From Lytechinus pictus (Eukaryota): a DNA stretch of 64,000 bases. Of the stretch, positions 3,380-62,843 are shown piece after piece (positions within the stretch are counted from its first letter, which is position 1; every line of letters begins with the position of its first letter). The notes below the pieces were generated by a model. That model searched no databases, was not told where the DNA came from, and saw nothing but the letters and a program-made list of their open reading frames with translations. The stretch spans positions 44,146,001 to 44,210,000 of the forward strand of contig NC_087251.1 in the NCBI RefSeq assembly GCF_037042905.1. Reading direction: 5' to 3'. A program made the position numbers and the translations under genes.

Positions 3380-3525
3380 GTTCGTAAATTTCTTTTTTTA
3401 ATTTTAAACAAAATCCCCAAAACCACAAAAAAAAAAGGTTTGTTACTTCTCATTTCTCACTAACTATCCACCCCGCTCTTCTTTCTTCACTTCTTCCTCA
3501 CTGCCAACTTCCCATTTATCAAGTC

Positions 3526-4845: not shown

Positions 4846-5117
4846 GGGCCCCGTCTTACAAAGAGTTACGATTGATCCGATCAATCCTAACTCTATGGAA
4901 ATCCATCAGTGTCATAATTTTTTCTATGAAAAATTTGCACAATGTCCTTTGTATGCAAAGAGAAGCGCAGTAAATTATCAAGAAAACAATGAATGCATGA
5001 ATGTATATCATAGCTAGAAAATATTCTGAACAAACATGCATATTAGATGTTGATGTTGCTGGTCGTCCATAGTTGCAATTGATCGGATCAATTGTAACTC
5101 TTTGTAAGACGGGGCCC
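4846..5117. mobile_element. Palindromic MITE (Harbinger-like); partial copies at about 2640-2830 and 5125-5345
   Basis: TIR gggccccgtcttacaaagagttac / gtaactctttgtaagacggggccc, in ctg/cag context. Confidence 0.85.
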
Positions 5118-5939: not shown

Positions 5940-6140
5940 TATTTTATTTTAATTTTTTTCTTAATTTTATTTTTTTATTTATTTATTTATTCATTTATTT
6001 GTTTATTTTATTTCATTTTATTTTTTATTTATTTATTCTATTTGTTTAATTATTCATTTATTGATTCACTTATTTGTTTATTTCATTTTATTATTTATTT
6101 ATTTATTTTCATTTTGTTTTATTTCATTTCATTTTATTTA
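5940..6140 (+). repeat. (TTTA)n-like low-complexity tract
   Basis: Seen directly. Confidence 0.9.
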
Positions 6141-18401: not shown

Positions 18402-20823
18402 AGGACAAGTCCACCCCAACAAAAAGTTGATTTGAATAAAAAGAGAAAAATCCAACAAGCATAAAACTGTTAATTTCATCAAAATCGGATGTAAAATAAG
18501 AAAGTTATGACATTTTAAAGTTTCGCTTAATTTCACAAAACAGTTCTATGCACATCCTGGCTGGTATGCAAATGAGGAGACTATGACGTCATCCACTCAC
18601 TATTTCTTTTGCATTTTATTATATGAAATATGAAATATTCTAATTTTCTCCTCATTGTCAAGTGATACAACGGTTAATTCCTCCCTCAACATGTGGAATT
18701 AGGATTGTTTTATACCATATGGTTCAGTCAAGTTGGTCCTTATTGTCAAATCTATAAAAAATGAAATATTGTATAATGATGATGATGATGATGATGGGTT
18801 CTTGTATAGCGCCGGTATCCGCCTCAGCTGGGCGCTCATGGCGCTTGCTCAAAAATAGGAAATATCTCACAAATTTCAATGTCTTTAAACAGTGCTTAGG
18901 ATCATCATTCAGTTCAAGTACTGTCCTAGTAATGCTACAATTGAGTTATTCTTGCAATAATGTTGGACTGGGGAACAGAAAAGTCTTCAGGTAAGACTCA
19001 AAAGTTGATTGGGTCTCTGCTCTCCTGATAAATTGAGGAAGGCTATTCCACAGCTTTGGTCCAGAGATGTAGAAGGCTCTGTCACCCCAAGTTGTGTGGC
19101 TGAGAGATTCTGTCAGCAATGCTTGATCTGCTGATCTGAGACTGCGTGTTGGTCTATGCTGAGATAAGAGCTCTGATATGTAGGGTGGAGATTTATCGTT
19201 AAGCGCTTTAAATACGAGGACCCCAAGTTTATAGGCTATTCTCTGGTTGACAGGCAGCCAATGTAGGTCACGCAGAATTGGAGTAATATGGACTCTCTTT
19301 CTTTGAAGGGACACAAGACGTGCGGCCATGTTCTGCAGACGCTGAAGTCTGTGCAGTTGATGTTGAGTCAAACCAGTCAAAATTGAGTTGCAAATGTCCA
19401 GTCGGGTTGTTACAAAGGCATGAACAAGGAGTTCAGCAACTTTTTTAGTTACATGCTTGCGGATCCTTCCAAGATTACGGATAGAGATACAGGCAGCCTT
19501 GGAAGTGCCTGTGACATGCTGCTCCATTGTAAGTGAGGAATCAAACACTACTCCAAGGTTTCTCACTTGATCAGAAGGCTTGATTAAAGAGTTGCCAATT
19601 CTTAGATGGTTTATTGTAACTTTGGCTCGTTGTTGACGAGATCCCACAACAAGGAATTCCGTCTTGTCCTTATTCATCTTAAGATAGTTATTAGACAGCC
19701 ATTGCTGGAGGTCAGCTACACAGGATTCAATGCGCTGAAGTCCTAAATTGACCTCAGTTTGAGATGAGTTGACGGTACAGTAAATCTGTGTATCATCTGC
19801 ATATCGGTGATACTGGAGTCCGTGCCTCTTGATGATGTGAGATATGGGCGAAGTGTACATGCTGAACAACTGCGGGCCGAGGACAGAGCCTTGAGGAACA
19901 CCATACTTCAGCGTTGATGAGTCGGACCTGGCACCGTCAACGGAAACATAGCTCGTCGAAACCACTGTAGTGCGACTCCGCTGATTCCATATAGGTCACT
20001 AAGTCGATGGAGAAGAATATCATGGTCGACAGTGTCGAACGCTGCTGAAAGATCCAGTAGGACTAGAAGCGATATCTTCTTTTGATCCATGCCGGAAAGT
20101 AGATCATTCTGGACTCTGAGGATTGCTGTCTCGACACTATGATTGGCACGATAGGCAGACTGGAATGTATCATGGAGAGAATTATCTGTGATGTAGGAAC
20201 TCAACTGGTTCATCACGACGCGCTCCAGTGTCTTGCTCAAGAAGCTGAGGTTGGAGATCGGGCGATAGTTGCTCATGTTCTCTGGATCGAGTTTTGACTT
20301 CTTCAGCACTGGATTAACTTGTGCAACTTTCAGAACTTCTGGGACTTCTCCAGATTGTAAAGAGGTATTAATGATTGATGTCACAATAGGGATCACAGTA
20401 GAAGAACAGGATTTGAGCAACAGAGTTGGGATAGGATCCAGATCACATGATTTTGGTGGTGAAGATAATACAATGCGTCGTACCTCATCCTCTGTTACCT
20501 CTTCGAAAACCGACAAGTTACTAGGTGATGACAATATTCCAGCAGAAGGAAGGCTTAGGTCATCAGCAATCTGGCATCCTTGGCGGATGTTTGAGATCTT
20601 TCAAACATCAAGTATAATTCAAACAATAAAAAACAAAAGAAATAGTGAGTGATGGACATCATCGACTGACTAACCTAGTTGTGCATATCACTGTTTTGTG
20701 AAAAATAAGCGAAACTTTAAATTGTCATAACCCTCTTATTTTACATCAGATTTTGATGAAATTTTTAGCACTATGCTAGTTTGATTTATTCAAGTCAGCA
20801 TTTTTCTGGGGTGGACTTGACCT
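18402..20823. mobile_element. TTAA-flanked palindromic MITE (Kolobok-like), interrupted by the LINE
   Basis: ttaa|aggacaagtccacccc ... ggggtggacttgacct|ttaa; an uninterrupted sister copy is at 31717-32308. Confidence 0.88.
18778..20611 (-). mobile_element. 5'-truncated L2/CR1-group LINE (ORF2 RT region) with one frameshift
   Basis: ORFs 20534-19908 and 19965-18946 carry NYRPISNL, FQSAYR, LLDLSAAFDTVDH, GVPQGSVLGP, YADDTQ and LHWLPV. (ATC)n 3' tail at 18778-18796; gtataat duplicated at 18771-18777 and 20612-20618. Confidence 0.95.
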
Positions 20824-24139: not shown

Positions 24140-25743
24140 GTACTGCAACAAATCTTTCAAATTCAGATATCCAAACGGTTGTCTGTTTGTCTTGATCATT
24201 GATATGGGATTATTACACCCTGTGAAAATTTGCATCAGTACAAAATTTATGGTATACTAGTGAGCTGTGGCATTTGTCTGAATGTGCCCTATTTATTTGT
24301 ACTGCTGTCAGCCACAAGGTGGCATGTAAAAAGTAATTCCGTGTATCAAATCCTTTGGAAATCTGATCCTCAGATCACAACCTCTTAATTCCTATTACAT
24401 GATATCATTGTAACCTGGCATTTATCATGAGTGTATATGTTTCATTCTCTATGTATCTATGTCTTGTTTCTTATTATTTTCTTTGAATATATGAAATATA
24501 TATCTAGCATGTAAAGAAGTCTTGTTATTTACTGCAACATAGCCCCCAAAACACTAACAATTTCTATTGCTCTACTGATGCATTCATTAATATGTTTTTA
24601 ATGTGTTTAAATGACATGCTTTATGAACTGATCCTATTTTCTTATGCTCACTCTCTTGTCATGCCTAACATTAAAAAAAAAGAAAAAAAAGATGAAAAAT
24701 AGGTTGCTTAGAATAGTCCATTGCATCTGTATATATATATTTCCTGTCCAACATCACTGCTTTAGACACAGTTATATACCTAACTAAATGATTCAATTAG
24801 TGGTTGTTTATGAAAGATAGAACGAGTGCATATGTACTTTACTGTAGATACTCTTTACACCTGTTTGTAATCTCAATTGTTATTATTTTTTTGCTTTATT
24901 CAAAGCTTCTTCTGTTTTGCATTGCTTCTTTTGTAAACTTATTGAGCCTTCCCCTAATAACTCACAAAGTATTTCAGCAAATGTCTTGTGCCAATTGTTA
25001 GATCTTATGCATTGACGGGCCGACATCTTGCATGCTAAGCTAAGTGATCTGCAACTGGCACATCTCTGACAACTCAATTTTCGCACATTCCCATATCCTC
25101 TGAGGGAGGGCGCTATGAGATAATGATGTCATATGCATAAGGTCTATGGTATCAAGAGAGAGAGGTTAACAATTCATCAATAAAGAGTCAGTTGGTTTTG
25201 CTTATTTATATGAGTTGTGATTTTCTATGATGATATCTACTCATATCTGGTACTTCATTACTAATTTTAAATAAATGTACTCGTAGCACTAATACTGTGA
25301 ATGTATAATATGTTGTATTCACTAATATTATTTACATTTAATACATGAATAAATTTATCCTTGCATATTCTAACATTACATGCAATAATTAGAAATGAGA
25401 CATGGTATGAGCCACCTGTGCTTAAGATTTGCCCTTGAAATGTAGTTACATAGGGGTGACAATTTGAAAAGCCTTTTTTGATACAAAGAGAGAGTGCATT
25501 TTTGTCTCACCTGCATAGCAGAGTGAGACTATAGGCGCCGCTTTTCCGACGGCGGCGGCGTCGGCGTCAACACCAAATCTTAACCTAAGGTTAAGTTTTT
25601 GAAATGACAGCATAACTTAAAATGTATATGGACCTAGTTCATGAAACTTGGCCATAAGGTTAACCAAGTATTACTGTCCATCCTGCTTGAGTTTCACATC
25701 ACATGACCAAGGTCAAAGGTCATTTAGGGTCAATGAACTAGAC

Positions 25744-26555
25744 CAGGGGTTCTCAAACTTTTTCTTTGAAGGGCCAGATGAGACTCCAAGTAAACCTGAA
25801 AGGGCCAGGGTGAAGTGGATACTTAGAAGAAAAAAAATTGTACCTATTGTACCTATACATACCTGGTATTGGTGAGACAGATAATGTCTTGAAGCATCAA
25901 TATTTTTTGTAGTCAAAGTAGATTGAATAATAGAGCATGTCTGTTGTAGACTCTAACAAGAATGTCAGTCTCTCAGTCATGCACTTTCAATATGGGAAAC
26001 GTGACAGTCTGTCAGCAACAAGTTGCTTGAACCTTGGCACAAAAAGGTTTAATTGCCAGACGAAGGCACTGGTGCAAATGTTCACTGGTCAAGCAGGGGC
26101 CGCCGAAGCGGGGGGGGGGGGGGGGGGGGGGCTTCAGCCCCCCCACTTTTTTTTCCAAAACCATGTACAAAAACGTGAAAATGACCATATGATTGTAATT
26201 TTTGCATGGCCAACCCCCCTCCACTTTGAATACCGTTCCGCGGCCTCTGTCCGCAAGGTACTTTGGTATAAGTTAGTTCTTTAACTTTCGCATCTGTATG
26301 TAGATCCAAACATGGTGAGAACAGCGCTGGTCATCTAATAAGAAAGTAGATCGAACAGACAGAAAAGACTCCACAAAACTTTACTTAAGTCAAATTTATT
26401 TGACTGTCATTACTTTTATTACGGTTAGGTCTACATGGATACACAATGTAATCATTTCATATTGTGATTAAAAAAACCCAACAGAGTCTCGCGGGCTGGA
26501 TTGAGAAGCTCTGCGGGCCGGATCCGGCCCGCGGGCCGTAGTTTGAGAACCCCTG
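25744..26555. mobile_element. Non-autonomous hAT (Charlie-like) element nested in the HINE-like copy
   Basis: TIRs caggggttctcaaact / agtttgagaacccctg; perfect 8-bp TSD aactagac (25736-25743, 26556-26563); subterminal gcgggccg motifs. Confidence 0.93.
26094..26249 (-). mobile_element. Short CAG..CTG MITE nested in the hAT element
   Basis: Reverse-complement sister of the copy at about 53198-53346. Confidence 0.75.
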
Positions 26556-28608
26556 AACTAGACCATGTTGGGGGAATCAACATCAAAATCTTAACCTAAG
26601 GTTAAGTTTTTGAAATGTCATCATAACTTAGAAAATATATGAACCTAGTTCATGAAACTTGGGCATAAGGTTAATCAAGTATTACTGAACATCCTGCATG
26701 AGTTTCACGTCACATGACCAAGGTCAAAGGTCATTTAGGGTCAATGAACTTTGGCCAAATTGGGGGTATCTGTTGAACTACCATCATAACTTTGAAAGTT
26801 TATGGATCTGATTCATGAAACTTGGACATAAGAGTAATCAAGTATCACTGAACATCCTGTGCAAGTTTCGCGTCACATGATCAAGGTCAAAGGTCATGTC
26901 AGGTCATTGAACTTTGGCCATTTTAGAGGTAATTATTAGATTGCTGTCATTACTTTCAAATTTTATAGAAATAGTGTATAAAATGTGGATATAGGGGTAA
27001 TCAAGTTTCACTGACAAGTTTTAGGTCACATGATCAAGGTCAAATGTCAATGAACGTAGTATTGTTTCCTTATATGAATGGTGTTTTTTGTGAATAATTA
27101 TTTGATAGTAGTTTTCAAAGTCAGCACTGCTGCTATATTGAATCGCGTGATGCAGGTGAGACCGCCAGAGGCATTCCACTTGTATAATTATCTTCTTTTT
27201 TTTTTACAAAGATATATGGAGCTTAAGAGACAATAATATATTTTGCAAGAAATCACTGCATCCATAAAAAGTTGTCAAGAAATGTCTGCTTTTAAGATTA
27301 TGATGTTAATCAGATAACGATGAATATTGCCATAGAAGTGTCACTTATTTCGAAATTGATGAATGATTTTGTTATTGAAAAGCATGGATGTGTAATCATA
27401 TATGTGATGCATGTTTGCATTGTTTTGTTGATTTTGGGGGTTTTCTGTTTTCTCCAAAGTTAATGAGAATTCGTCAGTTGAGTGTAAATATTGTTTTTGC
27501 ATTCCAAACAATTATAAATAAATTGATCTGCATCAAAGTATGACAACAGTTAATTGACAAAGTACATAAAGTAAAAAATCTGTTCAAAATATATTATGCA
27601 TGCTTGTGTGAATGTATTATGATTTTCCTGTGAACTTTTTCTGATATGTTTGATTTTGATTTAATATAATTTAATGAGCCATTGTTTCATCCATCTTTAG
27701 AAAAATTTGAATGGCAAAGCTTCAGGATAATAATTGTGATATATTACTTCTTAAATTGTGCAAGGTCATTCTTTTTTCCATCTTTGCTTATATAGTTTAT
27801 CCAAGGCCTTTATTCATATAAGATATCGAATATGAAATGGTCTTATGAAGAAAAAATGAATTAATCAGTACTCTACATTTGTGTTAGCTTACATTTAAAT
27901 TTTCTATGAACATTTAAAATAATAATGATGATAATAATAATACAAGGTATTTGTATAGCGCATGTATCCACCTTGTTAAATGCTCTCCTATATTAATTAC
28001 CCTGGCTAAGCTAGGCTACTGATTTTGGTACCCAATCAACTCATCCAGCAATAAGAATTATTCATAATTATGAAGTATTATGTTGAGAAAGATTTTAAAA
28101 CTTTTATTACAATATTTATCAATTTAGTCATATTCTCTGTACATGACTTTAATCTGGTTGTATGTGTTGTAAATGGTTAATGTTAAATCGTAAATCATTA
28201 CAATGCATAAGGCCCCAGTGTTAATAGAAAGAGTTAAGAAACCCTAATTGCAATACATTCGGGCATTTATTATTCCTTTATTTTTGCTATTCCTCATTGC
28301 TATCGCATATTGCATCTAACTTCAATACTAATAATCACGCTGATTTAAGCTGACCTAAACCCTCCATTTTTTGTTTAAACATTTACATGACCTGCCAATC
28401 CTTCTGATTTAATTAGAATTTGGAGACTTCCTTCTCTTGAGAATGAAACATCCTTAGTGAAGTCCTATTTTCCCAGGAAGGTAATCCATTTTCCCTAAAT
28501 GGCAGAGGTGGAAGGGGGGGGGGGGGTGCATTTAATGTCATTATGGTAAGACTGTATAGGGGGAAAACATTCACCGGTCTGGTTTGATCTTTTTATCATT
28601 TGGTACAG

Positions 28609-31062: not shown

Positions 31063-31360
31063 TAGAGTACCGAAGTGATGACGTCACAAAAAACTTTTTT
31101 TGTATTTCCGTGTTTTTGATACCTTATTTTGGTAGAGCTTGATGAAAAACCCCACAACCCAAATTTGGAGGGAATTGATTTATGGGGGCCTTAGATATGA
31201 CATCATGAATACATCATTAGCCCCATTGAAGTCAAGGTATTATTGGCCCTGTTCCAAATTTGGGTTGTGAGGGTTTTTCATCATGCTCTATCAAAATGTG
31301 ATATAAAAAATGCTGACATGCAAAAATGGAAAATTGATGACCTTGCACTTTGGTACTCTA
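31063..31360. mobile_element. Small palindromic MITE with TAG..CTA ends and 3-bp TSD (Academ-like)
   Basis: taa|tagagtaccgaagtg ... cactttggtactcta|taa. Confidence 0.8.
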
Positions 31361-35241: not shown

Positions 35242-35860
35242 GTAAGCTATATCATTGTCAGCTGTACGCACGCTTTGGTATCTTGATTTGTTTGTTTTTT
35301 AATGTTCGATTGTGGGAAAAACTGGGTGTTAAAAAAAAAACCTTGTACATCAAATTTTGAGGACAGCTTGATTTTAGAATTATGACAGTAGCAAACCTCT
35401 TGCCTTTGAAATAAATTACAAGACTGCTTCCAGGCAATGAGGTTGCCAGCAAAAAGCCGTATTTTAGAAAATTTCTAAACTACATCTTTTTTTTTCTTTT
35501 GCGCCAAGCTGCTCTCATTACTTTTGCAATTAGAAATACAAGGTTTTTTAACAGACAAGCAACGATTATATAACTCTTGAGATATAAGATAAATGTAGTT
35601 GTTTAGGTTACTAGTGGTGGATGGTAAAGGATAATGGAGCATAGCCTTGCATATTTCCCTCATAAACATTAGGTCAAAATGGAGGAAGTTAGATTTTAGA
35701 GTGGTTTTTACTTTGTTATTCATTAGAAAAGAAATTACTGCAAATGAGACATATCGCAAAATGGGGCATGGCCGCAGCTAATCCATTGTTCATTACCATT
35801 TCATGCACTAATTCAATATTTTGTGATTTATTTTATTTTGCATTTTGTTTGAATATATAG

Positions 35861-37207
35861 TTTTATTGTCTCGCCTGCATAGCAGAGCGAGACTATAGGC
35901 GCCGCTTTTCCGACGGCGGCGGCGGCGGCGTCAACATCAAATCTTAACCTAAGGTTAAGTTTTTGAAATGACATCATAACTTAGAAAGTATATGGACCTA
36001 GTTCATGAAACTTGGACATAAGGTTAATCAAGTATTACTGAACATCCTGCTTGAGTTTCAGGTCACATGACTAAGGTCAAAGGTCATTTAGGGTCAATGA
36101 ACTTGACCATGTTGGGAGAATTATTTTCAAAATCTTAACCGAAGGTTAAGTTTTTGAAATGACATCATAACTTAGAAAGTATATGGACCTAGTTCATGAA
36201 ACTTGCGCATAAGGGTAATCAAGTATTAGTGAACATCGTGCTCGAGTTTCAGGTCACATGACCAAGGTCAAAGGTCATTTAGGGTCAATGAACTTTGGTC
36301 AAGTTGGGGGTATTTGTTGAATTACTATCATAACTTTGAAAATTTATGGATCTAGTTCATGAAACTTGGACATAAGGTTAATCAAGTATTCGTGAACATC
36401 CTTCCTGAGTTTCAGGTCACATGGCCAAGGTCAAAGGTCATTTAGGGTCAATGAACTTTGGCCAAATTGGGGGTATTTGTTGAATTACCTTCATAACTAT
36501 GAAAATTTATGGATCTAGTTCATGAAACTTGGACATTAGGTTAATCAAGTACCACTGAATATCCTGTGCGAGTTTCAGGTCACATGACCATGGTCAGTGG
36601 TCATTTAAGGTCAATGAACTTTGGCCGTGTTGGGGGTCTTTGTTAAATTACCATCCTAACTCTGAAGGGTTATGGATCTAGTTCATAAAACTTGGACATA
36701 AGAGTAATCGAGTATCACTGAACATCCTGTACGAGTTTCAGGTCACATGACCATGGTCAAAGGTCATTTAAGGTCAATGAACTTTGGCCGTGTTGGGGGT
36801 ATTTGTTGAATTACCATCCTAACTCTGAAGTTTATGGATCTATTTCATAAAACTTGGGATATAAGAGTAATCAAGTATCACTAAACATCCCCTGTGAGTT
36901 TCAGGTCACAAAACCAAGGTCAAAGGTCAGTTAAGGTCAATAAACTTAGGCCATGTTGGGGTAATTGTTGAATTGCCATCATAACTTTGAAAGTTTTTGG
37001 ATAGAGTGAATGAAATGTGGACATTGGTGTATTTGACAAGTCTTAAGTCACCGTTCAAATGTCATCTTTGGTCAATGAACGTGGTATTATGTCATTATAT
37101 GAATGGTGTGTTTGTGAATGATTATTTTATAGTAGTTTTCAAAGTTAGCACTGCTGCTATATTAAATTGCGTAATGCAGGCGAGACTGCCAGAGGCGTTC
37201 CACTTGT
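35861..37207 (+). mobile_element. HINE-like element with 6 internal repeat units
   Basis: Same termini; the ggtcaaaggtca core (variant in one unit) is at 36075, 36266, 36429, 36592, 36755 and 36918 (spacings 191, 163, 163, 163, 163). Confidence 0.85.
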
Positions 37208-39782: not shown

Positions 39783-40321
39783 GTGAGATTATAGACCGAT
39801 AAAAGTCTAAACCAAACTCACATTGGTGTGTACCTTATTGCATGAATCTTGCCATCATTAAATGAAACTTATTTGGGGTTTATTTCATAGAACTGCGTAT
39901 CTAGATCAGGGGAGCGTTTCATGAAGTTTTGGTCAGTGAGTTTGATGTTATAAGCTACTGGAAATTCTTGCATCTGATTGGCTCAGAGCTGATTAGTCAG
40001 TTGAAATCACTGACAAAATGCTTTCTGAAACGCTCCCATGAAGTCTCTTTAAGCATTATTGTAATTTTCATGAGTGATTTAGAAAGAGTTTGAAATTCAC
40101 CACTTTTTGCCAAAGTATGTGTCATGAAATCACATTTAAAGTCCGTTTCAGTGCATCTATATACTTTTAAAAAGTATATTTACAAAAATGTTCAAGATTT
40201 ATAGTATATTTATTCCTCAGATTTAAAACAATATTTAAGAAACAGTAATAAATGAATAGGGGTTACTTTTTTAATGATGACATCAGCCTACACTGCATTA
40301 CATTGAAATATTTGATTACAG

Positions 40322-40961
40322 TTTTATTGTCTCACCTGCATAGCAGAGTGAGACTATAGGCGCCGCTTTTCCGACGGCGATGGCGGCGGCGGCGGCGGCG
40401 TCAACACCAAATCTTAACCTGAGGTTAAGTTTTTGAAATGACAGCATAACTTAGAAAGTATATGGACCTAGTTCATGAAACTTGGCCATAAGGTTAATCA
40501 AGTATTACTGAACATCCTGCATGAGTTTCACATCACATGACCAAGGTCAAAGGTCATTTAGGGTCAATGAACTTAGACCATGTTGGGGGAATCAACATCA
40601 AAATCTTAACCTAAGGTTAAGTTTTTGAAATGTCATCATAACTTAGAAAATATATGGACCTAGTTCATGAAACTTATACATAAGGTTAATCAAGTATCAC
40701 TGAACATCCTGCATGAGTTTCACATCACATGACCAAGGTCAAAGGTCATTTAGGGTCAAAGAACTTTGACCACGTTGGGGGTATTTGTTGAATTGCCATC
40801 ATATCTCTATAAGTGTATTGGTCTAGTTCATAAAACGTGGAAATAAGGGTAACCAAGTATCACTGAACATCTTGTGCGAGTTATAGTAGTTTTCAAAATC
40901 AGCACTGCTGCTATATTGAATCGCGTGATGCAGGTGAGACGGCCAGAGGCATTCCACTTGT
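40322..40961 (+). mobile_element. HINE-like element with 2 internal repeat units
   Basis: Same termini; cores at 40545 and 40737. Confidence 0.85.
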
Positions 40962-48933: not shown

Positions 48934-51646
48934 GTACACTTTCTGTACATTTTTTTTGGTTATTGTTTGTTAAAGCGATGTTTAAACGGGATTAATTCTA
49001 TTTTTTTTCCAATAACCCATGTCCAAAAAGGAATTGTCGTGGTTCAATAATGCTCTGCTAATTTTCTTTCTTTGGAATCCACCATCACATTGTCACATTC
49101 ATATACATTTTGTACCATCTTTCTAAGCATTACCATCCTACCGATAGCATCAACATCAGCAACTGTTACCATTACTTTTTGCATACTTTTACGTAAGCAT
49201 ACATTTTCAGCAGTTTATTACAAGAGGAAATTGGAATATAAGCACTGATTAAGCGATTTTGTACATCTTTATATTTTGCTATGAAGAATTTACATCTTGT
49301 AAAAGTTTCGTTATTGCCATATTTCATAATCCCGGTTTTTTAACTCGCAATATTTTGGTTGACTTGAGGGGTCCCTTTTCAGAAGAAGTTGGTAGCTGTA
49401 TGAATGCAGGGCTCTCAATTCTGATGAGGTCTGAAATCTTGGTAACGAAAAAAAAAGTTTGTTATGATTAAGATAATTTTTTCTTCAAGTCCTAAAATTA
49501 TTAGTAAAAAAAATCCTAAAAATATATCAATGTTGATCAAATAGAAAGAAGAAAGGATGAAACATTTAGTAAATGTTAGAAATCAATGCTACTAACCAAT
49601 CATTAGCAACGTTCCATTTATTGAATTAAATGGTATTTAACTAAAATTGTGTCATGGTCTGTCTAGGTATGGTGAATATTTTTCAAGACTCCTGATCAGT
49701 TTGGTGGCAAACATGGTACTTTATAATACTACTTCTTGCTTTATTTCTCATCATTTTCATTCTGTCTGTTGAACATTTGTTTTCTGTTTTCAAAGGAATA
49801 CAATGTTCAGTTTACTTTTTTTACACTTCCAGTTTGCAATTTTTCCAATTCCTCATGCTGGGCTTGGGGTTTTATTTCTCAACGATCATTTGGAGAAAAT
49901 ACATTGCTATTTTCTTTTATTTGGTAGATTTTATTTGCATGTCGGGTTCTCTATATTGATTTGCATTGTGATTGTACTTTTCCTTTTTTATTTTCTTTGA
50001 AAATGATTATGTAATAATTATATGAATGTATCATTCAACTAACTGCTATCCGTGTTTTTGAGTGTATGTTCAATATTTTTTTCTAGTCAGTAGCATTCTC
50101 TTTAATTTTGAAAGTTTTAGTAAGTCTATAAAGATGGGATAACATTTGAAAACAGAGTACCTTAGAAAATGTTGATTTGTACATCATTGGTAGGCATATT
50201 CTTAAATTAACATTTTTGTCGGATCTGTACCCTTCTTTGGGGGAGGTTTTCATTACCGGTAATGATTTTATGCTCAATGTAAAGAAATCACATGTTTGAG
50301 TTGTCCCCTAGAGATCCTATGATAAGTTGCCAGTGAACTATGATTTTTTTTAGACTTTCCAAACATGTGCTGTAACTGAACCATGAGTAATACATGTATT
50401 TTAAACCACCAATATCTTTCAGATCCCAGCTTATAATTCACCATAGAAGTTTGCAAAAGGTGTAGACACTTATAGCTGCAGCCCACTTTCCTTCCATTAA
50501 ATGAAATTTTGGCTTGTTTTATATTTGATGACTGATGCAAAGTATCTGGGATAATTGAGGATATCAATTATATTAGCAATAATGATGATAATCATAATGT
50601 TAAAAATAATGATAATGATAATGGGGAACATTCCAGATAGAGCATCAAAGCATTAAGTCTATTTAGACATTTCTTATTCTCTTTTTATTCATTCCGACTG
50701 ATCTCTCCATAGTCCAGACTGTCTTGTTTCTTCCTAATTTGTGTATTATATGGTGACACGACATAAACTCCTGCGACATTTGCTCCAGTCTTCAACTCTC
50801 ATAGAGGGCATAGGGTTAGAGATACAATTGTAATAAGAGTTGTTGGTTCAGAACAATGAAAATAGTATGATTAGGGTTCATTTAGTTTTGGAGGTCAGGT
50901 TTTATGTTTGGCTTAACGTGCAGATTTTCCATTGGAACAATTTGTCGCTGGAGCAAATGTCGTGGAAACGTATTATATGATAACACATACTATGTCATTT
51001 GTATAATTATTGATAGTTTGAGAAAATTTGTGTATGGAATTGATGGAAGTAGAAATCTCATTACCAATCTGAATCGCATGAAAATATGGGGAGAGATTAA
51101 AAAAGTCATTTTTTGTTTGTTTTTTATTTGTCTTTTGGTTTGGCGATTGAATTTGTTTCAGTTTTAGTTTTCTTTCAGATGTTGTGTTCCTTGCAACTTT
51201 TTTTTGTTCATATCAGATGTCATGAAAAAAAAAGTGATTTCCTGATAGTGAAAAGTATAAATGAAATACAACATAATGGTCATAATCTTTATGGAAAAGT
51301 ATGAAAAATTGATTGCATTGCTGGTGTAATTTTGAAGAAAAATATTCACTCCCATTTCTTTTAAAAAAATGTAAAAGGGTCTAACTTTGAAGGTTTCATA
51401 AAATCATTCTTTTATATATTTTTAATTGTTATTAAATATTTGTAATGTAAATTGAATTATTAACCCCATTTCCTTTTCATTTTGTCACCTATTCTGTACT
51501 TCTCTTTACTTTCTCTCTTCTCTGTTCTTTTCCTTACCCCTTTGCTTCTTGTCATTCTCCTTTTCCTTGCTTCATCTTGTCCGTTTTCCTCTCCCTTTCT
51601 TCTCCATCTTTATCCCTTCCCCTTCCATTTCGTTAACTCTTTACAG

Positions 51647-51676
51647 ACGAAACAAGCCGATGGTACAGGGGTATAG
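51647..51676 (+). CDS. RRBP1: RRBP1/kinectin-like terminal coding exon: TKQADGTGV*
   Basis: Long pyrimidine tract then tttacag acceptor; C-terminus resembles RRBP1 'KEGTSV*'; TAG at 51674-51676. Confidence 0.88.
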   Translation, partial: TKQADGTGV

Positions 51677-51906
51677 CTGATGCAGTCGCCTCGTTGATAC
51701 AGCAGCAGCAGTAGCATCACCAGCCCTCCTAAATGATACAGTGCAACTCATATACACAACGGCCAATACCTTGTTCCATTGTATACACTTCTGCATGCTT
51801 GACTCATATCGGTAGTAGGGGTAGATTGTTATTATTATTATCATTAGTAATTATACTGTACTTAAACAATTCTGTGTAGTGTACAGGCCAGGTCTTGGCA
51901 TATCAG

Positions 51907-51912
51907 AATAAA
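51907..51912 (+). terminator. Candidate proximal polyadenylation signal AATAAA
   Basis: First AATAAA after the stop codon; a distal candidate is at 57905-57910. Confidence 0.4.
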
Positions 51913-53197
51913 AACACAATGGAGCATCACTTTTCTAAAGATAATGCCCTTAAAAATATGTAAGATGGAATCTAAAGGAAAGTGGTATTATATAAAGAGG
52001 TTTTTATTTTGTTCTAGCCAGTATATACATTGATTCAAAGTAATACCCTAACAAAATAGTAGGTAACATTGAAAATAATGTTTATATTGGTTAAATAGAT
52101 GAAATTTCAAGTATTTTTTTCTCTCTTTAAATTTTTGTTCTTGATTCCATGTTTGTTTTTGTTTTTTTTAAAATAATTTTCTTAGAGCAACAGATCGCTG
52201 TAAGTTTCTTTTGGAGATCTGGGAGATTTCATTGTGATTTATTTTTGTTTATCTTTAATTAAATGTATAATAATTCTTTCATTGCATCCATTGAGCTTCC
52301 ACCAATGTTGAAGAAAACAAAAACAAACTGAACTGTGATGCACTTTTCAAGGATGGATCGGGGGAGTGTTTCATCAATATTTTCATCCGACAAGTTGTCA
52401 GATCTGACATCTTTCCATGATTTTGATTGGCTGAGAGACACTGTTCCCATGGTAACTGTCGGATAAAATGGGACTTGTCGGATAAAACGTCCGACAAGTC
52501 CTTTCATGAAACGCCCCCCTGAACTTCAAAGATGCTCTGGGTAGATGTTAGATATTGTTTGTATTAATCTTGCAAAAAAAAAAAGAAGAAAAGTAATGAA
52601 TTGTAGTAACTTTAGATAAATTTGAAAAGGAAAGAATGCACTGAATGTGAATGTTAATTCACTGCCATATCATTTCAGCTTCTCTACATTCCTGCACACT
52701 AAAAAGTAGGGTCTGTACCAACATTTCATACATGTAGATTTGGCTGAGATAGAACAGTGGATGAAATTGCCTTGCTTAGTGAAGATTGCATGATATTTCA
52801 CTTTGGCATGAATCTGTTGAGGTTTTTCTAGAAGATAGCATTGTGATGGGTTTATATTTGGGACTGATACCTTTCCCATTAAAATGAATCCATATCCTTG
52901 GCAAGACATTGTCAAGATCAAGAAATCATAGCATGACTGTTGTAATGAAATGATAACCATACTCAGCAGTGTTGGTCTTATTTCATTCATAATGAAGGGT
53001 TACCTTTTATTCTTAAGATAAGGTTTTAAGTTGGTGATGAATGAATAGATTTGAAATCTTGCCTGCCATTTGCTGTGAATAATGCATGTGTAAAGTCAAA
53101 TTCTACCTCTGTATTTCACTAATAAGGAGCCAAGGTTTTATGATGGTATGGGTAGATCGCAGGATGGGAAATGGGAACAGGATTAAAACCCACTCTA

Positions 53198-53346
53198 CAG
53201 GGGCCGCGGAACGGTTTTCAAAGTGGGAGGGGGGCTGACCATGCAAAAAATCACAATCTTATGGTCATTTTTACGTTTTTGTACACGGTTTTGGAAAAAA
53301 GTGGGTGCTGAAGCCCCCCCCCCCCCCCCCTCTTCCGTGGAACCTT
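53198..53346 (+). mobile_element. Short MITE, same family as 26094-26249
   Basis: caggggccgcggaacggttttcaaagtgg...ttttggaaaaaagtgggtgctgaagcccccc. Confidence 0.75.
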
Positions 53347-54023
53347 CTCTAGCATACTGGAGTGCTAACATCCACTAGCAATGTATGACACTGCAGTTGT
53401 ACACACGGGGAACATATTCCTCGCTCACAAGGGACACTTCTTTTTTCCAGAGAGCACTGCCCAACCCTGCCCACACAAAAAGTACACCATTTACTGTCAA
53501 TACACTAATAATGTCAAGAAAACGAGTACGCCGGAATGTGATAGCATACCGTGGAAGGAGTGTTGCATTTCATTTGCATTGTTCTTTAAGCTGCCATCTT
53601 CCCAACTGCCAATGTGAATCGTAAGGTCCCTCATGTAGCTCTTTCCAGAATCGAGTGGCGTGTTCCCACTGCCAAATCATTCGATGCTAAAATTGACTCT
53701 GCATGGGTGGCAATACTTACAGTACCACAATTGATTGTAGTACTATCACTGATGAAGATTGATTTGTCACAAACAATCAAGCCGTGAGAACAACCACTCC
53801 ATGTTTGTTGAAGTCCTTATTAAAGTTTGTTTTAATAGATCCCCTTCCCAATTTTCCTTATTCCTGAGTAACCTTTTTGTGTAGTGTTCCCTGGTTTGAG
53901 GTAGATTTTAAAAGAGGAGGTTGAAATGACGATGGTAGTCGTACTAAGAAGATCTCATTTCAAAGATGACCGGAAGGTATCGATAGGAAATTGGGTCAAA
54001 CCAAAGATAAGACAGGGGATCAT

Positions 54024-54455
54024 CAGACCTGCCAACCAGTACGTTTTTGGCGTATTTAGTACGTTTTTGCAACCAAAATATGGCAGTACGTTTTTTCTTT
54101 TAAAAATACGTTTTTGTAAAAAAAAAAATCGTAATTTATTGAGAAAAATCATCTCTATATGTCTCTATTTCATAAAACTTACACAAATATGGTTATTAGA
54201 TCAATGTAATTTCAGGTACACTGTAACTTGTTTTTTTTCCCAATCGTTTTGATAAAAATCAGGGTGAGATATTCACATGTTTAAATGTTTTTTTTTTCAT
54301 CTGCAAGAGCAGTGCGCATTTTAGCTTGCATGCAGCTTGAGCGCCGCGATGAGCGAGTGCACCACGCATTTTATTATGAAATACACTTTTTGGGGAAAAA
54401 TACACTTTTTTTATCACAGAATATAATTTTTCATTCCCAGAGGTTGGCAGGTCTT
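54024..54455. mobile_element. hAT-like MITE
   Basis: cagacctgccaacc ... ggttggcaggtct; gatcat on both flanks. Confidence 0.72.
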
Positions 54456-54993
54456 GATCATACAAGGCTTAATAGGACAGGGGAACAGGGCTTATTAAGG
54501 AGATAAATAATGTGAAAATATGCTTATTTTTAAGTTGGTTCTTTGGTATATTGGCAGAAAAGGGTAATCTTTAATGAGATGAGACATGAATACATGTATA
54601 TTCAGAAATTTATTATTATTATTATGATCATTTTCAGATGCGGATTCACGCATAGATTTGATTATAGGATGAATTTCGAGGATTATAGATAGTTTAAAAA
54701 AAAATCATAACTCAATTAATTTTGCTTGAATACATTGCCAACCTTCGTTCTCTTCTGTTGTCTGTTTGAAGGATTAAATCTAGTGACACATCGTCGTTTT
54801 GGAATGGGAAGTTTGCATGTGAAACAGAAAAGCAGTTCAGTATTCTCTAGTCCCCCACTCCCTTGTAACCTTGTTTCATGAATGTGTACCCTAATGCAAA
54901 GATTCTTCAAGTGAAGTGGTGAAATTTGTTTAGATATGGCAGAATCTCTCTCAGTTTTGATCTCATTATACAGTCAAGAACTTATGTGACCTG

Positions 54994-55327
54994 GCGGGTG
55001 TTTCATAAAGCTGTTCGTAAATTAAGAGCGACTCTAAGAACGACTGGTGATCCTTTCTTATGGTAAATGATATTCACCATTAATGTTCATTGGTGATTAT
55101 TTAGCCCCTAAGAAAGGTTCACCAGCCGTTCTTAAAGTCGCTCTTAACTTGCGAACAGCTTTATGAAACGGCCCCCAGGATCACGTTTCATAGACCCTTG
55201 CTATGATAACAAATTCACAGTTACTATAACAAGTTTACTATCAGTCTATCAGATTGAAGGATTTTAGGAGCTTTTCAGTGTTATTGCAAATTTGTTATTA
55301 AAACATGTTTTATGAAACGGGGACCTG
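54994..55327. mobile_element. Two abutting Harbinger-like hairpin MITEs; sisters of the first at about 29013-29174 and 55693-55860
   Basis: ctg|..gtttcataaagctgttcg / cgaacagctttatgaaacg..|cag, followed directly by cgtttcatag...ttatgaaacggggacctg. Confidence 0.8.
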
Positions 55328-58076
55328 GGATGATGCTATGCCTCTGGGTTTCATGTACTGCATACATGTTTTGATGGTAGATTGAGCTCAACTACTTGTA
55401 TCTCCTAATTTGTAGGGGGGGGGGGCTGTCTCCCCTGAACATGTGCGCCAGCGTATGCCAATGTACGTATACAATGGCAAGCTATGTTATCTCATTTTAG
55501 ATACAAAAAATGGCCTTCAGCTACCAACACATATGAGTCTTCATATAAAGAATATGAATTCTTAATGTTTTGTGTTAACAAACGATGATTCTTGGTATCA
55601 ATTATGGAATGCTTGATATAAAGAAATGGGATTAGTGGCAAAAGGCTGGCCAGACATACAGTACGTCAGCTTACGCTGGCTAAAATGTGCAGGCGGGTGT
55701 TCCATAAAGTTATTAGTACGTTACAAGCGACTTTAAGAACGACTGGTGATCCTTTCTTGTGGTAAATGACGTACACCAAATTTTCATTGATGTTGATTCA
55801 GCACTTGAGAAAGGATCACCAGTCATTCTCAAAGTCGCTCGTAACTTATGAAAGACCTACCGGATATGACGCCCCCTTATATACTTTCACTCCGAGCAAG
55901 AGCAAAGATTTTTTCACATTCTCCCATAATTAAAAGACTTACAGTTTATGTCATCAGAGGCAGCATTTGTTGGGTAGTCTGGCTCCATAACTTAATAACC
56001 AAGTAGGCAAACATTCCATATTCTATGTAACGAGTGACTTACATTACCAATGGTTATATCTTCTCTTTTGTAGAAATTTGTACTTAAGAAATGATAATCA
56101 CAGCCTCACAAAATTGTGTTTTGTGGTCGAGTGTATGATTTTATGTCTTGGTAACACAGGGTTAACACATTCTAACCCAGTGTTTTATTAGCCTTTGCTA
56201 TCGGTGTTTGGAAACAGGAATATTTTCATGATTATGTGTTTCATGATTGACATGGTTGTAAGTTTTGTGTTCAAAATGAATCAGGAAGTTTTCAGGTAAT
56301 TGATTATGTTTCTTGTCAATGGATATACGATTTCTGTATTGAAGAGCACAATTTTTTTTTTGATACACAAAAAAGATAACATTTCAGAAATAACAAAGAC
56401 AATGATACAATATTGCATTTGTTTATAATGCTAAATGTAATTCATTTGGCTTTATAGCCATAGGTTTCTTTTATAGAGTCAGTTTCTGAGGGAGGGTGAA
56501 ATGTGATTTGTATGATGCTATAATGAACAAATCATTGATTTACAAATTCATTCAGTATTTGCAAAAATATATTTCCTTTCTGTTGCCTTTTCTCTTGCTC
56601 TGTTTTTAATGTTAATACATTTCTATATTACATGGTGAAGGATGGCTATCTACTTATAGTCGCAAGTTATGAGTTTTAATCTTTGATTTCTTACATCTTT
56701 ATATAGTATGAAAATAGGTCTAGATTTAGTAAGAGATTAAAAGAATTGAATTTGAACTGTTTGTGTACAGGATAACAACACTCGGTGACAGTAATTGATT
56801 TTGATTTTAGATATTTTATCAGAGTTGGAGAAGCAGAGATTTTTGAATGGGATGAATTGGAAAAGAGTATGAATTTATTATCTATCTTGGAATTATTTCA
56901 TGTTGTAGAGTAGTCAATATTGATGTGTAGGAGGGAGGTATTATATGTATTGCAAAGTAATTCAGAGTTCAACCCGCTCAGATGGAACCATTCCAGTGTA
57001 TATTGAAACTTTACCTACCTAAATTCTATCTTGTGTGTCTACTAACATTTCTATCTGTCGACGGGCTGTACCAAGTTTGGTTTCCACAAATACATACCCA
57101 CCTCGTGTTCAGCATGCAATTTGAAGGAATTGTTCTGGAAAATTATTTTGGATGAATGCTCTTATTTTGGTTTCTTCGGCAGGAATGCCACTTTGAACTT
57201 CCAGACTTTTTCAACATATTTTTGGCAATAGAGAACACATTTTTAGAGTAGAAAAGGGGCCATTCTAGATAAATTTCAGACTTTTGATCAATCCTTAAAT
57301 ATTTAGTTGCATCCCTGCTTCTGAGAATATTTAATTGCAAGATATCTGAAGATTGTAATCTGGTCAAGTATGCGTAAAACGTAATTGACTGGATTAGTTA
57401 TGAATCACCACTAAATTAATTTGTTGAATTGATATTTCCATTGTGAAGACTATGACCTATTATTTTCTATTGGAAAGGTCCATACTGTGGTTACACGGGA
57501 CCCATTACAGAAAGAACTGCATTCAATTGCAACTCGGAAAATCATATGCAACTCCTGAACGCTGGCTTCTGATTGGTTAAGACTCAAGTTGCATTTGATT
57601 TTGTAGAGTTACGTTTGATTGCAACTCTCTCTGCATCAGACTTCAGGGTCCTGTTTCATAAAAGACTTCTTTTTGATAACAAATGCACAATTTCTATAGC
57701 AAATACACTATCAGCCAATCAGATTGAAGGATATCAGTAGCTTTACCGCAAATTTGTTAAAACAAGTTTAATGAAAGGGGCCCTCAGAAGGAATAAGTGT
57801 TGTTACTTCTTACATTATCATTTTTTTATTTTCATTTTCATTTATGTGGTTTTTACTTTGTGATAATAGATTCCAGATATAATAAGAGCCTCTTCTATGT
57901 TATGAATAAATTTACAACAAAATATGGTTTAATCCTGTGTTGATCTGGAATTGAGTGCCTTTATGTCCATTAAAGATTTTTTAATAGAGATGGAGTCATG
58001 AGGCCGTGGGACTCACCCTGAGGCCTTAAGGCTGGCTTGCATGGACTACAATCCCTGGTTTCCACTATGTCAGTGG

Positions 58077-61000
58077 TAGTAGACTTGTTAAGAGGTTAAA
58101 CGCTGCATTTTTGAGTACAAATGTCCCACTTGGCACAAATGTTCCTTGAGTCAAAAGAAAAAAAATTATCCAAAGAGACACGCTGTATCTATGCAAATAA
58201 GCAAGTAATTTGCATAAATTTGCATATTATGTCGATATAGTGAAAGCAAGTATTTAAGATTATATATTTAACCAGAACTGCCCTAAAATTGGAAATAAAG
58301 ACTTAGGGTAAGAAAGGGAAGAAAATTGTCATAAAATGATTGAGATATCCTTGTTTATTATTACCTAATTTACATAAATTATGCAAATTATAATTCAAAA
58401 CAGAGTATTTTTTCATGAATCCTCAACTGTTTTATAAATAACACCAATTAATATACAATGTCAACATTCTACATGAAAGAGAATGTATTAGCGAAAACAT
58501 CGATATGCTTCATGACAGTATTGGTGTCATAATTTGCTTAGAAAGAGGGCAAATGTGTCAAAATGTATGACGTGATATTGCGCTAAAACGAGACCAAAAC
58601 AACCTCTATGTCACAGTCACACTCACGAATCCGACAATAAAGCGATCAATGGTATGTCATTCGAGATAACACAATCCCAACACAATAGCTTCCATCGGCT
58701 TCTCGTATCGGTTTTGTTGGTGTGTCTGCCACACCGTAATCTATGATATATACGGGCAAAATGCATTTCGGTATCGTTAAAAAGCCATTTGTTTTATTTG
58801 TTTCTAATGTGTTTCTCTTGAAAATTTACAGGAGACATTGCTTTGCAGGTTACTGCTTTAATGAAGCTCTGGACCATGAATTCATGATGAATGTACCCTA
58901 CCTCAATCCATATTTTAACTTTATTAAAATATATATCTTTTGGAGACCCCGAAGTGGCAAAACTGCATTCCCGCTACTTTACAAAACCAGTTTGACTTGT
59001 ATTATCGACTTGGAAAAGACAGATGTATGACACATCAGTCAACATGTTTCCTGAAGAAAGTTTTTTGTTTATTTAAGCCTACGCCCATGGGAGCCCTCCC
59101 AATTTACCCCATCCCCTCTCCGTATTTCGACACTAAATTAAAAATATCGTGTTTTAAAGCCATCAGCAAGGCAAACTGTGTTTTTTTGTATAGTAAAGCA
59201 ACTTTTATATCTATATATTTTTAAATCTATATTCATCATTATTGATATTATTATAAACATTATTAAAATTATCTAAGTTATTATTATAATTATTATCATC
59301 ATTATTATTATTATTATCATTATTATTATTATCATTATTATAATCATTATTATTGTTATTATTATTATTATTATTGTTCTGCAGTTTGTAATAATGCTCT
59401 AGCACAGTAAAGGCTATATAACCCAACAGAAGCATGCCTAGGATACCCTTTCCCCTTTTGGTTTTATGTATTCAAAGATAGTTTATTGTCTTTAGAACTC
59501 TTAAAAGATTACTTTTGTTTGTATTGATATCTTGGAATAGATTGAGGAGAAAATACTCTACAATTGACGTGTAAAGGAGCTGTGGTACATTGAAGAACAG
59601 CCACACGTAAGCTCTAAACTACTCAAAGCCCTTTATTGATTCCACTCTATGTTAAATTTAAATATTTTTAGGACCCAATCGGAAGAAAGATGCATTTCTA
59701 CTACACAGTAAAGCCGCTTTACGTTCTCCTCTTGAATAACCCCCCCAAAAAAAAAAACATAGAAGGCATTGTTTTATATCGCATAAAATAAGTTCGTGTA
59801 CATGAGGTGGCCTGTCGAAGTTGCTCAACCCTTTATTTTGTTTTGACAATATATATTTGGAATGTCGTCTAAATGAAGCCCTCATCTGGAAAAGGGCACT
59901 TATTAAAGGCAGCATCTACATTATATAGAGGAGGCCCTGGCACTTGGAAGCGGGGGCTGAAGCACCCACAAGATTTCCCGGGGGGGGGGGGGTGTGCTGC
60001 ATGTATTATTTTCCATAGACAGCACCCCCTGGAATTCCGGCAGATGTGACAAACCCGAAAAAAAAAACGTTACCAAAATAACCTTCATTTTGTAGTGCAA
60101 TCCTTTTTATTTATTTGCTTGTTAAATTTCCTGGGACCAAAATTTTACATTGAACCTTATTTGCATTTCAAATTTACATCAAGAAATTTAACAAACAAAT
60201 ATACAAAAAGGATTGCACTACAAAATGAAGGTTATTTTGGTAACGTTTCTTTTTTTTCGTTTTGTCACATCTGCCGGAATTCCAGGGGGTGATGTCTATG
60301 GAGAATAATACACGCAGCACCCCCCCCCCCCCCCCCGAAAATCTTGCGGGTGCTTCAGCCCCCGCTTCCGGGTGCTAGGGCCTGCAATGTAGATGCTGCC
60401 TTTAATAAGTGCCCTTTTCCAGAATGAGGGCTTCATTTAGACGATATTCTAAATATATATTGTCAAAACAAAATAAAGGGTTGGGCAACTTCGACAGGCC
60501 ACCGTCATCATGGTCATACACACGAACTTATTTTATGCGATATAAAACAATGCCTTCTATTTTTTTCCAAGAGGAGAACGTAAGGCGGCTTTACTGTGCA
60601 GTTTATAGAAATGCATCTTTCTTCCGATTGGGCTCTAAAAATATTTAAATTTAACATAGAGTGGAATCAATAAAGGGCTTTGAGTAGTTTGGAGCTTACG
60701 TGTGGCTTTTCTTCAATGTACCACAGCTCCTCTACATGTCAATTGTACAGTATTTTCTACTCAATCTATTCTAAGATATCAATACAAACAAAAGTAAACT
60801 TTTAAGAGTTCTAAAGACAATAAACTATTTTTGAATGCATACAACCAAAAGGGGAAAGGGTATCCTAGGCATGCATGCTTCTGTTGGGTTATAGCCTTTA
60901 CTGTGCTAGAGCATTATTACAAACTGCAGAACAATAATAACAATAATTATAATAATAATAATGATTATAATAGTAATAATAATAATAATATTATTATTAA

Positions 61001-62206
61001 TAATAATAATTATAACAATAATAATAATATTAATATTGATAAATATAAAATATAGACATAAAAAGTTGCTTTATTATACCAATAAACGCAAGTTGCGTTG
61101 CCGATGGCTTTAAAACACGATATTTTTTATTTAGTGTCGAAAAAAGGAGAAGGGATGGGCTAAATTCGGAGGGCTCCCGTGGGCGTAGGCTGAAATAAAC
61201 ACAAAAACTTTCTTCAGGAAACATGTTGACTGGTGTCTCATACATCTTTCTTTTCCAAGTCGATAATACAAGTCAAACTGGTTTTGTAAAGTAGCGGGAA
61301 TACCGGAGGAATGCAGTTTTGCCACTTCGGGGTCTCCAAAAGATATATATTTCAATAAAGTTAAAATATGGATTGAGGTGGGGTACATTCGTCATGATTC
61401 ATGGTCCAGAGCTTCATTAAAGCAGTAACCTGCAAAGCAATGTCTCCTGTTAATTTTCCAAGGGGAACAGATTAGAAACAAATAAAACAAATGGTGATAC
61501 CGAAATGCATTTTGCCCGTATATATCATAGATTACGGTGTGGCAGACACACCCAACAAAAGCGATACGAGAAGCCAATGGAAGCTATTGTGTTGGGATTG
61601 TGTTATCTCGAATGACATACCATTGATCGCTTTATTGTCGGATTCGTGAGTGTGACTGTGACATAGAGGTTGCTTTGGTCTCGTTTTAGCGCAATATCAC
61701 GTCATACATTTTGACATATTTGCCCTCTTTCTAAGCAAATTATGACACCAATACTGTCATGAAGCATATCGATGTTTTCGCTAATATATTCTCTTTCATG
61801 TAGAATGTTGACATTGTGTATTAATTGTTGTTATTTATAAAACAGTTGAGGATTCATGAAAAAATACTCTGTTTTGAATTATAATTTGCCTAATTTATGC
61901 AAATTAGGTAATAATAAACAAGGATATCTCAATCATTTTATGACAAATTTTGTTCCCTTTTTTACCCTAAGTCTTTACTTCCAATTTTAGGGCAGTTCTG
62001 GTTAAATGTATATTCTTAAATACTTGTTTTCACTATATCGACATAATATGCAAATTTATGCAAATTACTTGCTTATTTGCATAGATACAGCGTGTCTCTT
62101 TGGATGAATCTTTTTCTTTTGACTCAAGGAACATTTGTGCCAAGTGGGACATTTGTACTAAAAAATGCAGCGTTCACCCCTTTTTTTGCAGTTAACAAGT
62201 CTACTA
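58077..62206. mobile_element. 4.1-kb non-coding foldback (palindromic) element, Academ-like termini
   Basis: tgg|TAGTAGACTTGTTAA ... TTAACAAGTCTACTA|tgg; arms about 58077-60130 and 60183-62206 are reverse complements along their whole length, spacer about 50 nt. Confidence 0.92.
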
Positions 62207-62843
62207 TGGCCCCTAAGATGAAACCAATAGCCCTTCCAAGAAAAACATATACCTAATTTCTCAATTTTAATACATTAGAGAGGTCATGATAGAAGGGTAA
62301 AAAACTTTTAGGAACAGTGACATATTTATGAGTTTCATAATGTAATTGTCAATATATTTTTTTCTTTTTTTCATGCTAGTATTGGATTCATACGAATTGC
62401 TTGGACGAAGGAAATCAGTTTTCCGTTACTGATTTTATTGCTCCCACTCTGAAGTCCATTTAGAACTTTGATTTATCAATTAATTAGTAGGAATTGGAAT
62501 GGCATCAGTTTAAATTCTAATTTTCCAAGAGTAATTGTTGATGTAGAAACATTGATATAGTGAAAGATGTGTATGTTATGACTGAACATATATATGTTTG
62601 TATGTAGAATTGCAAATATGAATGTGCATGGATCATATATGTGCTAGTATGGTAAATGTAGTCTCGTGCTGCCAAAATATTGTATTGTAGCAGTTTAACA
62701 AAGAGGAAAATTAAAAGAGAAATATGGCTGTATCAAACTAAAATGATCTTGTTGTGATTTATTCTTTTGTGTGAATTATATTGGGCAGTGTAATTAGGTT
62801 TGCTGTATTTGCTTTGATGAATTCAAAGGAATAATTAGATTAA

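Follow-up and report, generated by a model that had tools for sequence, protein, structure and literature searches.

A 4.1-kb foldback-shaped element with plausibly Academ-like, unequal ends behind an RRBP1-like gene of Lytechinus pictus

A 4.1-kb palindrome lies behind the last exon of a gene for a ribosome-binding protein 1-like (RRBP1-like) protein in a 64,000-nt stretch of the Lytechinus pictus genome (contig NC_087251.1, positions 44,146,001 to 44,210,000; hereafter the window, numbered from its first letter). The question arises as to what this palindrome is, how two mirrored 2-kb arms could be generated, and whether RNA of the gene runs through them. We think it probable that it is a non-autonomous cut-and-paste DNA transposon of foldback shape and AcademX type, moved by a transposase encoded elsewhere. 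Foldback-shaped non-autonomous DNA transposons are a known kind, of which this is a further member; among the matches listed in the literature, none describes an Academ family that is palindromic or has unequal ends, which is a weak negative.

Structure and coding content of the element

The palindrome is made of the following parts.

58077..60130, + strand: left arm, 2054 nt, non-coding
59238..59375, + strand: (ATT)n microsatellite, within the left arm
60131..60182, no strand: central spacer, 52 nt
60183..62206, - strand: right arm, 2024 nt, 95% complementary to the left arm
60933..61035, + strand: (AAT)n microsatellite in the right arm, mirror counterpart of 59238-59375

The whole element (58077-62206) is 4130 nt long, about 99% of which is taken up by its terminal inverted repeats (TIRs). 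Global alignment of the left arm with the reverse-complemented right arm gave 1878 matches and 98 mismatches, that is 95.0% identity, the measure that a first-pass annotation of this DNA had called for, and 126 gap columns arising from 25 indel events. Identity is uniform lengthwise, at 89 to 98.5% per 200-column step. The inverted arms of about 2.05 kb and the spacer of about 50 nt described in that annotation are thereby confirmed, as is the absence of a TU-type outer domain of tandem repeats: the sole arrays are the mid-arm microsatellites, one tract per arm, mirrored. The palindrome had also been called near-perfect, which it is not: its longest unbroken stem is 96 nt, and this weakens the argument that such a structure should be unstable.

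No stop-to-stop open reading frame of at least 100 amino acids was found in the element, and 29 frames reach at least 50. A Pfam scan of 26 of these 29 (of the other three, two consist of microsatellite and the third is for the most part beyond the element) returned nothing at the curated cut-off and no transposase, only sub-threshold matches, in agreement with the earlier statement that a transposase is absent. Rfam and tRNA searches of the window gave 0 matches. To detect foreign repeat pieces, the left arm was compared by BLAST, after masking of its microsatellite, with the remainder of the window, and only four poly-C/poly-A matches of 18 to 25 nt appeared. Positions 59948-59967 resemble the poly-G repeats at 53199-53340 and 26092-26250 over 16 to 20 nt, too short a likeness for a captured repeat to be claimed.

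Termini, target-site duplication and affiliation

The features of the ends are as follows.

58074..58076, + strand: TGG, left candidate copy of the target-site duplication (TSD)
58077..58091, + strand: left outer terminal block, 15 nt, same at both ends
58190..58390, either strand: four ATGCAAAT 8-mers clustered toward the end of the element, which may bind a transposase or host factors
62192..62206, - strand: right outer terminal block, 15 nt
62207..62209, + strand: TGG, right candidate TSD copy

The terminal 15 nt of both ends are the same (TAGTAGACTTGTTAA), the element is bounded by TAG..CTA, and TGG abuts it at either end, a 3-nt match expected by chance with a probability of about 0.02. 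These letters agree with the earlier description of TAG...CTA ends with TGG on both sides. When the window was scanned for TAG..CTA pairs that have a 3- to 4-nt duplication and agree in at least 14 of their 15 terminal letters, two were found, the 4.1-kb element and a 298-nt element; 18 of 20 shuffled controls contained none and two contained one. Pattern scans for the ends in metagenome contigs, viral contigs and prokaryote genomes gave 0 matches, as expected for an animal repeat, and is uninformative. The 8-mers listed above correspond to the Oct/POU octamer. Two copies of ACAAATGT, spaced by 18 nt, are present in the inner terminal block and, like the 8-mers, may represent binding sites.

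According to PMC10045372, AcademX elements have TSDs of 3 or 4 bp and AcademH elements of 9-10 bp; 3-bp TSDs and a mean length of about 470 bp are given for Academ miniature inverted-repeat elements (MITEs) of insects (PMC5199201), and about 5.6 kb for autonomous Academ elements of bivalves (PMC10294476). The 4.1-kb element shares with AcademX the 3-nt direct repeat outside its ends and the TAG..CTA termini. It differs in carrying no remnant of a transposase or XPG nuclease, as expected of a non-autonomous copy, and in consisting almost wholly of TIRs. AcademH does not fit, its 9-10-bp TSD and its helicase contrasting with the 3-nt repeat and the lack of any coding frame here. From these sequence features, an Academ-like affiliation is plausible.

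Other systems resemble the element in form. Tc1/mariner transposons are brought to mind by a TA that flanks GTAGAC..GTCTAC within the same end letters, yet the TGG is then unexplained, and Tc1/mariner ends usually start with CAG, which this element does not. Foldback elements, among them FB and Tetris of Drosophila, are mostly of Mutator type in PMC4079207. The 4.1-kb element differs from such classical foldbacks by having no tandem-repeat outer domain and a TSD of 3 bp rather than 8-10 bp. It resembles them, as it does sea urchin TU, in its long inverted arms, non-coding nature and small middle.

A likeness of form is also found in Galileo, of the P superfamily. According to PMC4168063, Galileo TIRs lengthen as internal DNA and other insertions are incorporated, these being then present in both arms, and copy 147 of Drosophila willistoni is 4306 bp long with TIRs of 1575 and 1608 bp that are 97.5% alike. 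Non-autonomous copies with extended TIRs (D. willistoni 112, 145 and 147) thus have a form similar to that of the 4.1-kb element, whereas Galileo has a 7-8-bp TSD, fragments of a P-type transposase in the arms, and other termini. For assigning a non-autonomous element to a family, the Repbase rule, as given in PMC4455052, is that its terminal 11 nt align to a classified family with at most one mismatch.

Abundance of the family and decay of the left arm

Reads from four of the 24 listed runs were used: X2 (RNA of the window's species), X21 (total RNA depleted of ribosomal RNA), and X9 and X12 (DNA of a related urchin). The comparison covers 51640-59200, from the end of the gene to nucleotide 1124 of the 4130-nt element.

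Taking five bins of unique flank as the reference, summed contig depth in the four bins lying fully inside the arm was 760 to 5970 times as high in X9 and 690 to 3420 times as high in X12; at five single arm sites the ratios to the flank were 115 to 6009 and 523 to 2527, respectively; these ratios of contig depth are not copy numbers. Such an excess indicates that the arm belongs to an abundant interspersed repeat in the related urchin. For the window's own species, position 58555 is spanned by 12 distinct contigs of the RNA run X2. The outer 650 nt or so are 2 to 8 times deeper than 58724-59200 in X9, X12 and X2, which suggests that many relatives are shorter or different inside. The earlier proposal of a non-autonomous foldback family is therefore supported by the structure, the high DNA depth and the many distinct contigs.

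Other copies agree with the right arm at 58246, 58260, 58555 and 58819, and an 8-nt insertion of the left arm near 58783 is rare among them (7 and 12 times flank depth). As the other copies match the right arm at these sites, the differences correspond to decay of the left arm at this locus; decay of the right arm is invisible in this comparison, which is limited to the left end. Annotation of an abundant repeat of Lytechinus could start from the sequence of this element.

Insertion site and age

The element starts 6.4 kb past the stop of the RRBP1-like gene and shortly after a polyadenylation-type hexamer.

57905..57910, + strand: AATAAA, 172 nt before the element

The measured distance agrees with the figure of about 170 nt given in the first-pass annotation. 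In the related urchin, a contig of 1108 nt from X12 matches 57742-58008 and continues with 809 nt unlike anything in the stretch, and a contig from X9 ceases matching at 58008 too. This point, where both DNA runs diverge 68 nt before the element, is next to a GAGGCC direct repeat and may correspond to an indel or insertion distinct from the element. Entry into such an abundant repeat would interrupt a contig, which leads us to consider that the element is probably absent from the orthologous site in the related urchin, as far as contig sequences can tell.

Outside the microsatellite, the arms differ at 83 of 1836 sites (Kimura two-parameter distance, K2P, 4.7%), and the flank differs between the window and the related urchin at 228 of 3504 sites (6.5%, X12) or 178 of 2611 sites (6.8%, X9). 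Arm divergence being lower than flank divergence, the data would fit an insertion after the lineage split, if the arms were alike at the time of insertion. The insertion at this site is probably fairly recent and probably specific to its lineage, and it lies where the RNA of a housekeeping gene has its distal end.

Host gene and possible read-through into the element

The following features describe the end of the host gene.

51647..51676, + strand: final coding exon of the RRBP1-like host gene, with its stop, from protein matches
51677..58145, + strand: RNA-covered region past the stop (long 3' untranslated region, UTR, or read-through), from six X2 contig pieces, with the strand taken from X21

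The exon at 34891-35235 matches the ribosome-binding protein 1-like protein of Lytechinus pictus at 99 to 100% (22 of the 27 matches are to that species), and those of Lytechinus variegatus and Strongylocentrotus purpuratus at 96% and 87%. The C-terminal residues common to all 27 RRBP1-like proteins are encoded at 51647-51673, and the stop follows directly. One of the X2 records stops at the acceptor (51646), so that X2 behaves as spliced RNA. Its six pieces show 4 differences from the window in 5649 nt; the animal may be close kin of the assembled one, and X2 does not represent a population. Piece depths are 833 (51646-52390), 78, 25, 20, 35 and 101 (55808-58145). The drop from 833 to 78 near 52400 suggests that most of the RNA is polyadenylated there and that a very long 3' UTR, rich in small repeats, is a minor form. 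X21 is labelled as the window's species and shows fixed differences in 51640-58217, many of them common to the DNA runs of the related urchin.

The last X2 piece crosses the left junction and reaches 69 nt inside the element. Since it bridges 58077, the left junction is real, and some RNA runs past the AATAAA at 57905. Further in, letters private to the left arm make up 4.4 of a depth of 216 at 58246 and none of the depth at 58260 (94.9) and 58555 (260.8), and no A-to-G site is among these three. Raw X21 reads on the gene's strand have a depth of 10.8 in 57965-58217 and of 0.4, 2.7, 0.24 and 0.42 in the next four bins; they were placed at 85% likeness and number 1 to 2 per site in the arm, and this animal, whose alleles differ from the window, may be without the insertion. 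Position 58145 was dropped as an RNA end: the last 31-mer with a left-private base ends at 58143, and the contig ends where 31-mers stop being private. We did not use the A-to-G excess of X21 either (83 A>G and 52 T>C over the whole stretch, compared with 65/62 and 72/62 in the DNA runs), as this animal differs from the window and most of the places lie outside the element.

Within these limits, and in one RNA run, long host-gene RNA enters the tip of the element and fades within about 170 to 180 nt. Candidates for a distal poly(A) site would be the signal at 57905, an A-run at 58152-58165 and a further AATAAA at 58294. A single transcript spanning both arms was not seen in this steady-state RNA, the private letters of X2 being absent or at 2% from 58246 on; contigs drop rare, edited or diced RNA, and nascent RNA also could escape. 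The first-pass annotation had foreseen that read-through would give a double-stranded hairpin of about 2 kb. Its first part stands, in that RNA enters by 69 nt, and its second is unsupported at steady state, the private letters being nearly gone at 58246 and absent from 58260 on.

Unequal ends

Behind the shared 15 nt, the two ends of the element differ in spacing.

58092..58098, + strand: 'short' end stretch from outer to inner block, 7 nt
62175..62191, - strand: 'long' end stretch from outer to inner block, 17 nt

The inner common block begins at position 23 of the left end and at position 33 of the right end, and the following common block at positions 39 and 49, so that the offset is exactly 10 nt, about one helix turn of DNA. 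Besides this difference in length, the stretch separating the end blocks contains substitutions between the ends. The ends are thus not the mirror images that a palindrome had been taken to have.

Unequal spacing of two conserved blocks recalls the RAG system. According to PMC8289069, ProtoRAG has asymmetric TIRs with 27- and 31-bp spacers, requires unequal ends, and has a TIR starting with CAC. Like ProtoRAG and the RAG 12/23 signals, the 4.1-kb element has two conserved blocks with unequal gaps, here of 7 and 17 nt; unlike ProtoRAG, its ends start with TAG and RAG-like genes are absent from it. That unequal ends are required has been demonstrated for ProtoRAG and would be a guess by analogy for the 4.1-kb element. 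ProtoRAG also has a TSD of 5 bp, which is lacking here. The resemblance is an analogy, not membership.

To our knowledge, the mechanism of the Academ superfamily is unstudied. We tentatively put forward, as an idea that we regard as possible rather than probable, that AcademX transposases need a short and a long end a helical turn apart, by a rule resembling 12/23, and that this high-copy Academ foldback family keeps its ends unequal for that purpose. A fully symmetric foldback could then not move, and the outermost 35 nt or so would stay unequal despite the mirrored 2-kb arms. If the ends proved to be unequal throughout the family, this would speak strongly, as a natural experiment, for a RAG-like pairing of unlike ends by Academ transposases.

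Three observations weigh against this idea. Indels of 7 to 11 nt are frequent between the arms, and 2 of 91 non-overlapping 20-nt windows elsewhere in the arms show a net offset of 9 to 11, so that a chance indel has about a 2-3% probability of producing the 10-nt offset. Moreover, the 298-nt element at 31063-31360 shows no length offset (79/79; 97/98), which goes against a window-wide rule if that element is Academ at all.

That second small DNA transposon is bounded by TAG..CTA and flanked by TAA on either side. Its imperfect TIR is about 107 nt long and differs between the ends at positions 16-62. No alignment was found between its ends and those of the 4.1-kb element.

Possible origin of the element and alternative explanations

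The origin of this probably AcademX-type transposon may be pictured as follows. The element has no coding capacity, identical 15-nt ends and a 3-nt direct repeat outside, and its first 1.1 kb belongs to a family that is abundant and interspersed in the related urchin, and by indication in the window's species. Internal DNA beside one end, microsatellite included, would have been copied reversed beside the other, possibly by gap repair or conversion as for Galileo, while the parent's outermost 35 nt or so were kept at left and right. The microsatellite at mirror positions suggests that one arm was copied from the other, and the unequal tips that the parent's two ends were kept, unlike what a plain duplication of one half would give. 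Insertion at TGG behind the RRBP1-like gene would have occurred once the flanks of the two lineages had begun diverging, and the arms would have decayed apart since. From the single RNA run described above, with its limits, a minor long host RNA enters the tip and fades, and the copy may be mostly inert.

Several facts argue against the reading as an AcademX-type transposon. The flanking TA of GTAGAC..GTCTAC offers an alternative 2-bp TA duplication. Ends and flanks are known from this single copy, no second full copy or autonomous partner having been seen, and the read evidence concerns the left 1124 nt only, where position 58077 does not figure among the loose ends tabulated. The contigs of the related urchin depart 68 nt before the element and do not make a clean empty site. 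The Academ-like label of the first-pass annotation therefore holds in so far as the 3-nt TSD fits the published 3-4 bp of AcademX, and is weakened by the one copy and the possible TA register.

Four other scenarios are considered. An ordinary copy may have lost its middle and had one half duplicated in place, as a one-off local foldback that never moved and whose relatives have short TIRs. In agreement with this, no second palindromic copy was seen in the reads over the first 1124 nt, and the 2- to 8-fold drop in depth from the outer 650 nt to 58724-59200 (X9, X12, X2) points to many relatives without the inner arm; however, the inner bins still have 690 to 1450 times flank depth in the related urchin, and arm identity is even along the length (89-98.5% per 200 columns), so that we hold this scenario to be unlikely. 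Likewise unlikely in our view is a mobile foldback of another superfamily, with ends GTAGAC..GTCTAC and a TA duplication, or another register, and TGG by chance. It would account for the TA on both sides, and the foldback form arises in several superfamilies, as stated in PMC4079207; but TGG on both sides is left unexplained, its chance match of about 2% being low, yet obtained on a single copy.

Also unlikely is the third scenario, a functional hairpin, in which RRBP1-like RNA spans both arms to form a 2-kb duplex that ADAR edits or that is diced into endogenous small interfering RNAs (endo-siRNAs), and that is hence missing from ordinary RNA-seq contigs. Gene-strand RNA does reach the element past the AATAAA at 57905, the inner 721 nt of the hairpin, which would be very stable if it formed, have a predicted fold of -550.7 kcal/mol (z = -41), and the contig end at 58145 need not be an RNA end, given the last left-private 31-mer. 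Against it stand the left-private letters of X2, at 4.4/216, 0/94.9 and 0/260.8 with no A-to-G site among them, and the X21 gene-strand depth of 0.24 to 2.7 in the arm versus 10.8 in the junction bin, in an animal that may be without the insertion. Finally, the assembly may have joined two haplotypes, or a foldback read, head to head. Arm divergence of 5% is comparable to haplotype differences in sea urchins, and the read check covers the left junction only; nevertheless, the symmetry ends exactly at TAG..CTA, outside which a 3-nt direct repeat is followed by flanks that are unrelated. The spacing at the two ends is offset by 10 nt, and X2, which behaves as spliced RNA and differs from the window at 4 of 5649 nt, reads across the left junction. 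We therefore tend to discard this last scenario, as hardly credible.

Other repeats in the window

Short, very high-copy inverted-repeat elements lie in the transcribed region behind the stop, at 52361-52519, 54996-55179, 55689-55870 and 57600-57760. Small edited hairpins are more to be expected from these than from the 4.1-kb element. An intronic repeat is present in three copies (25492-27183, 35856-37207 and 40317-40961), with internal tandem units of 163 and 191 nt, and a broken LINE reverse-transcriptase remnant (RVT_1, E 1.4e-17) lies in an intron on the - strand, at 18946-20600.

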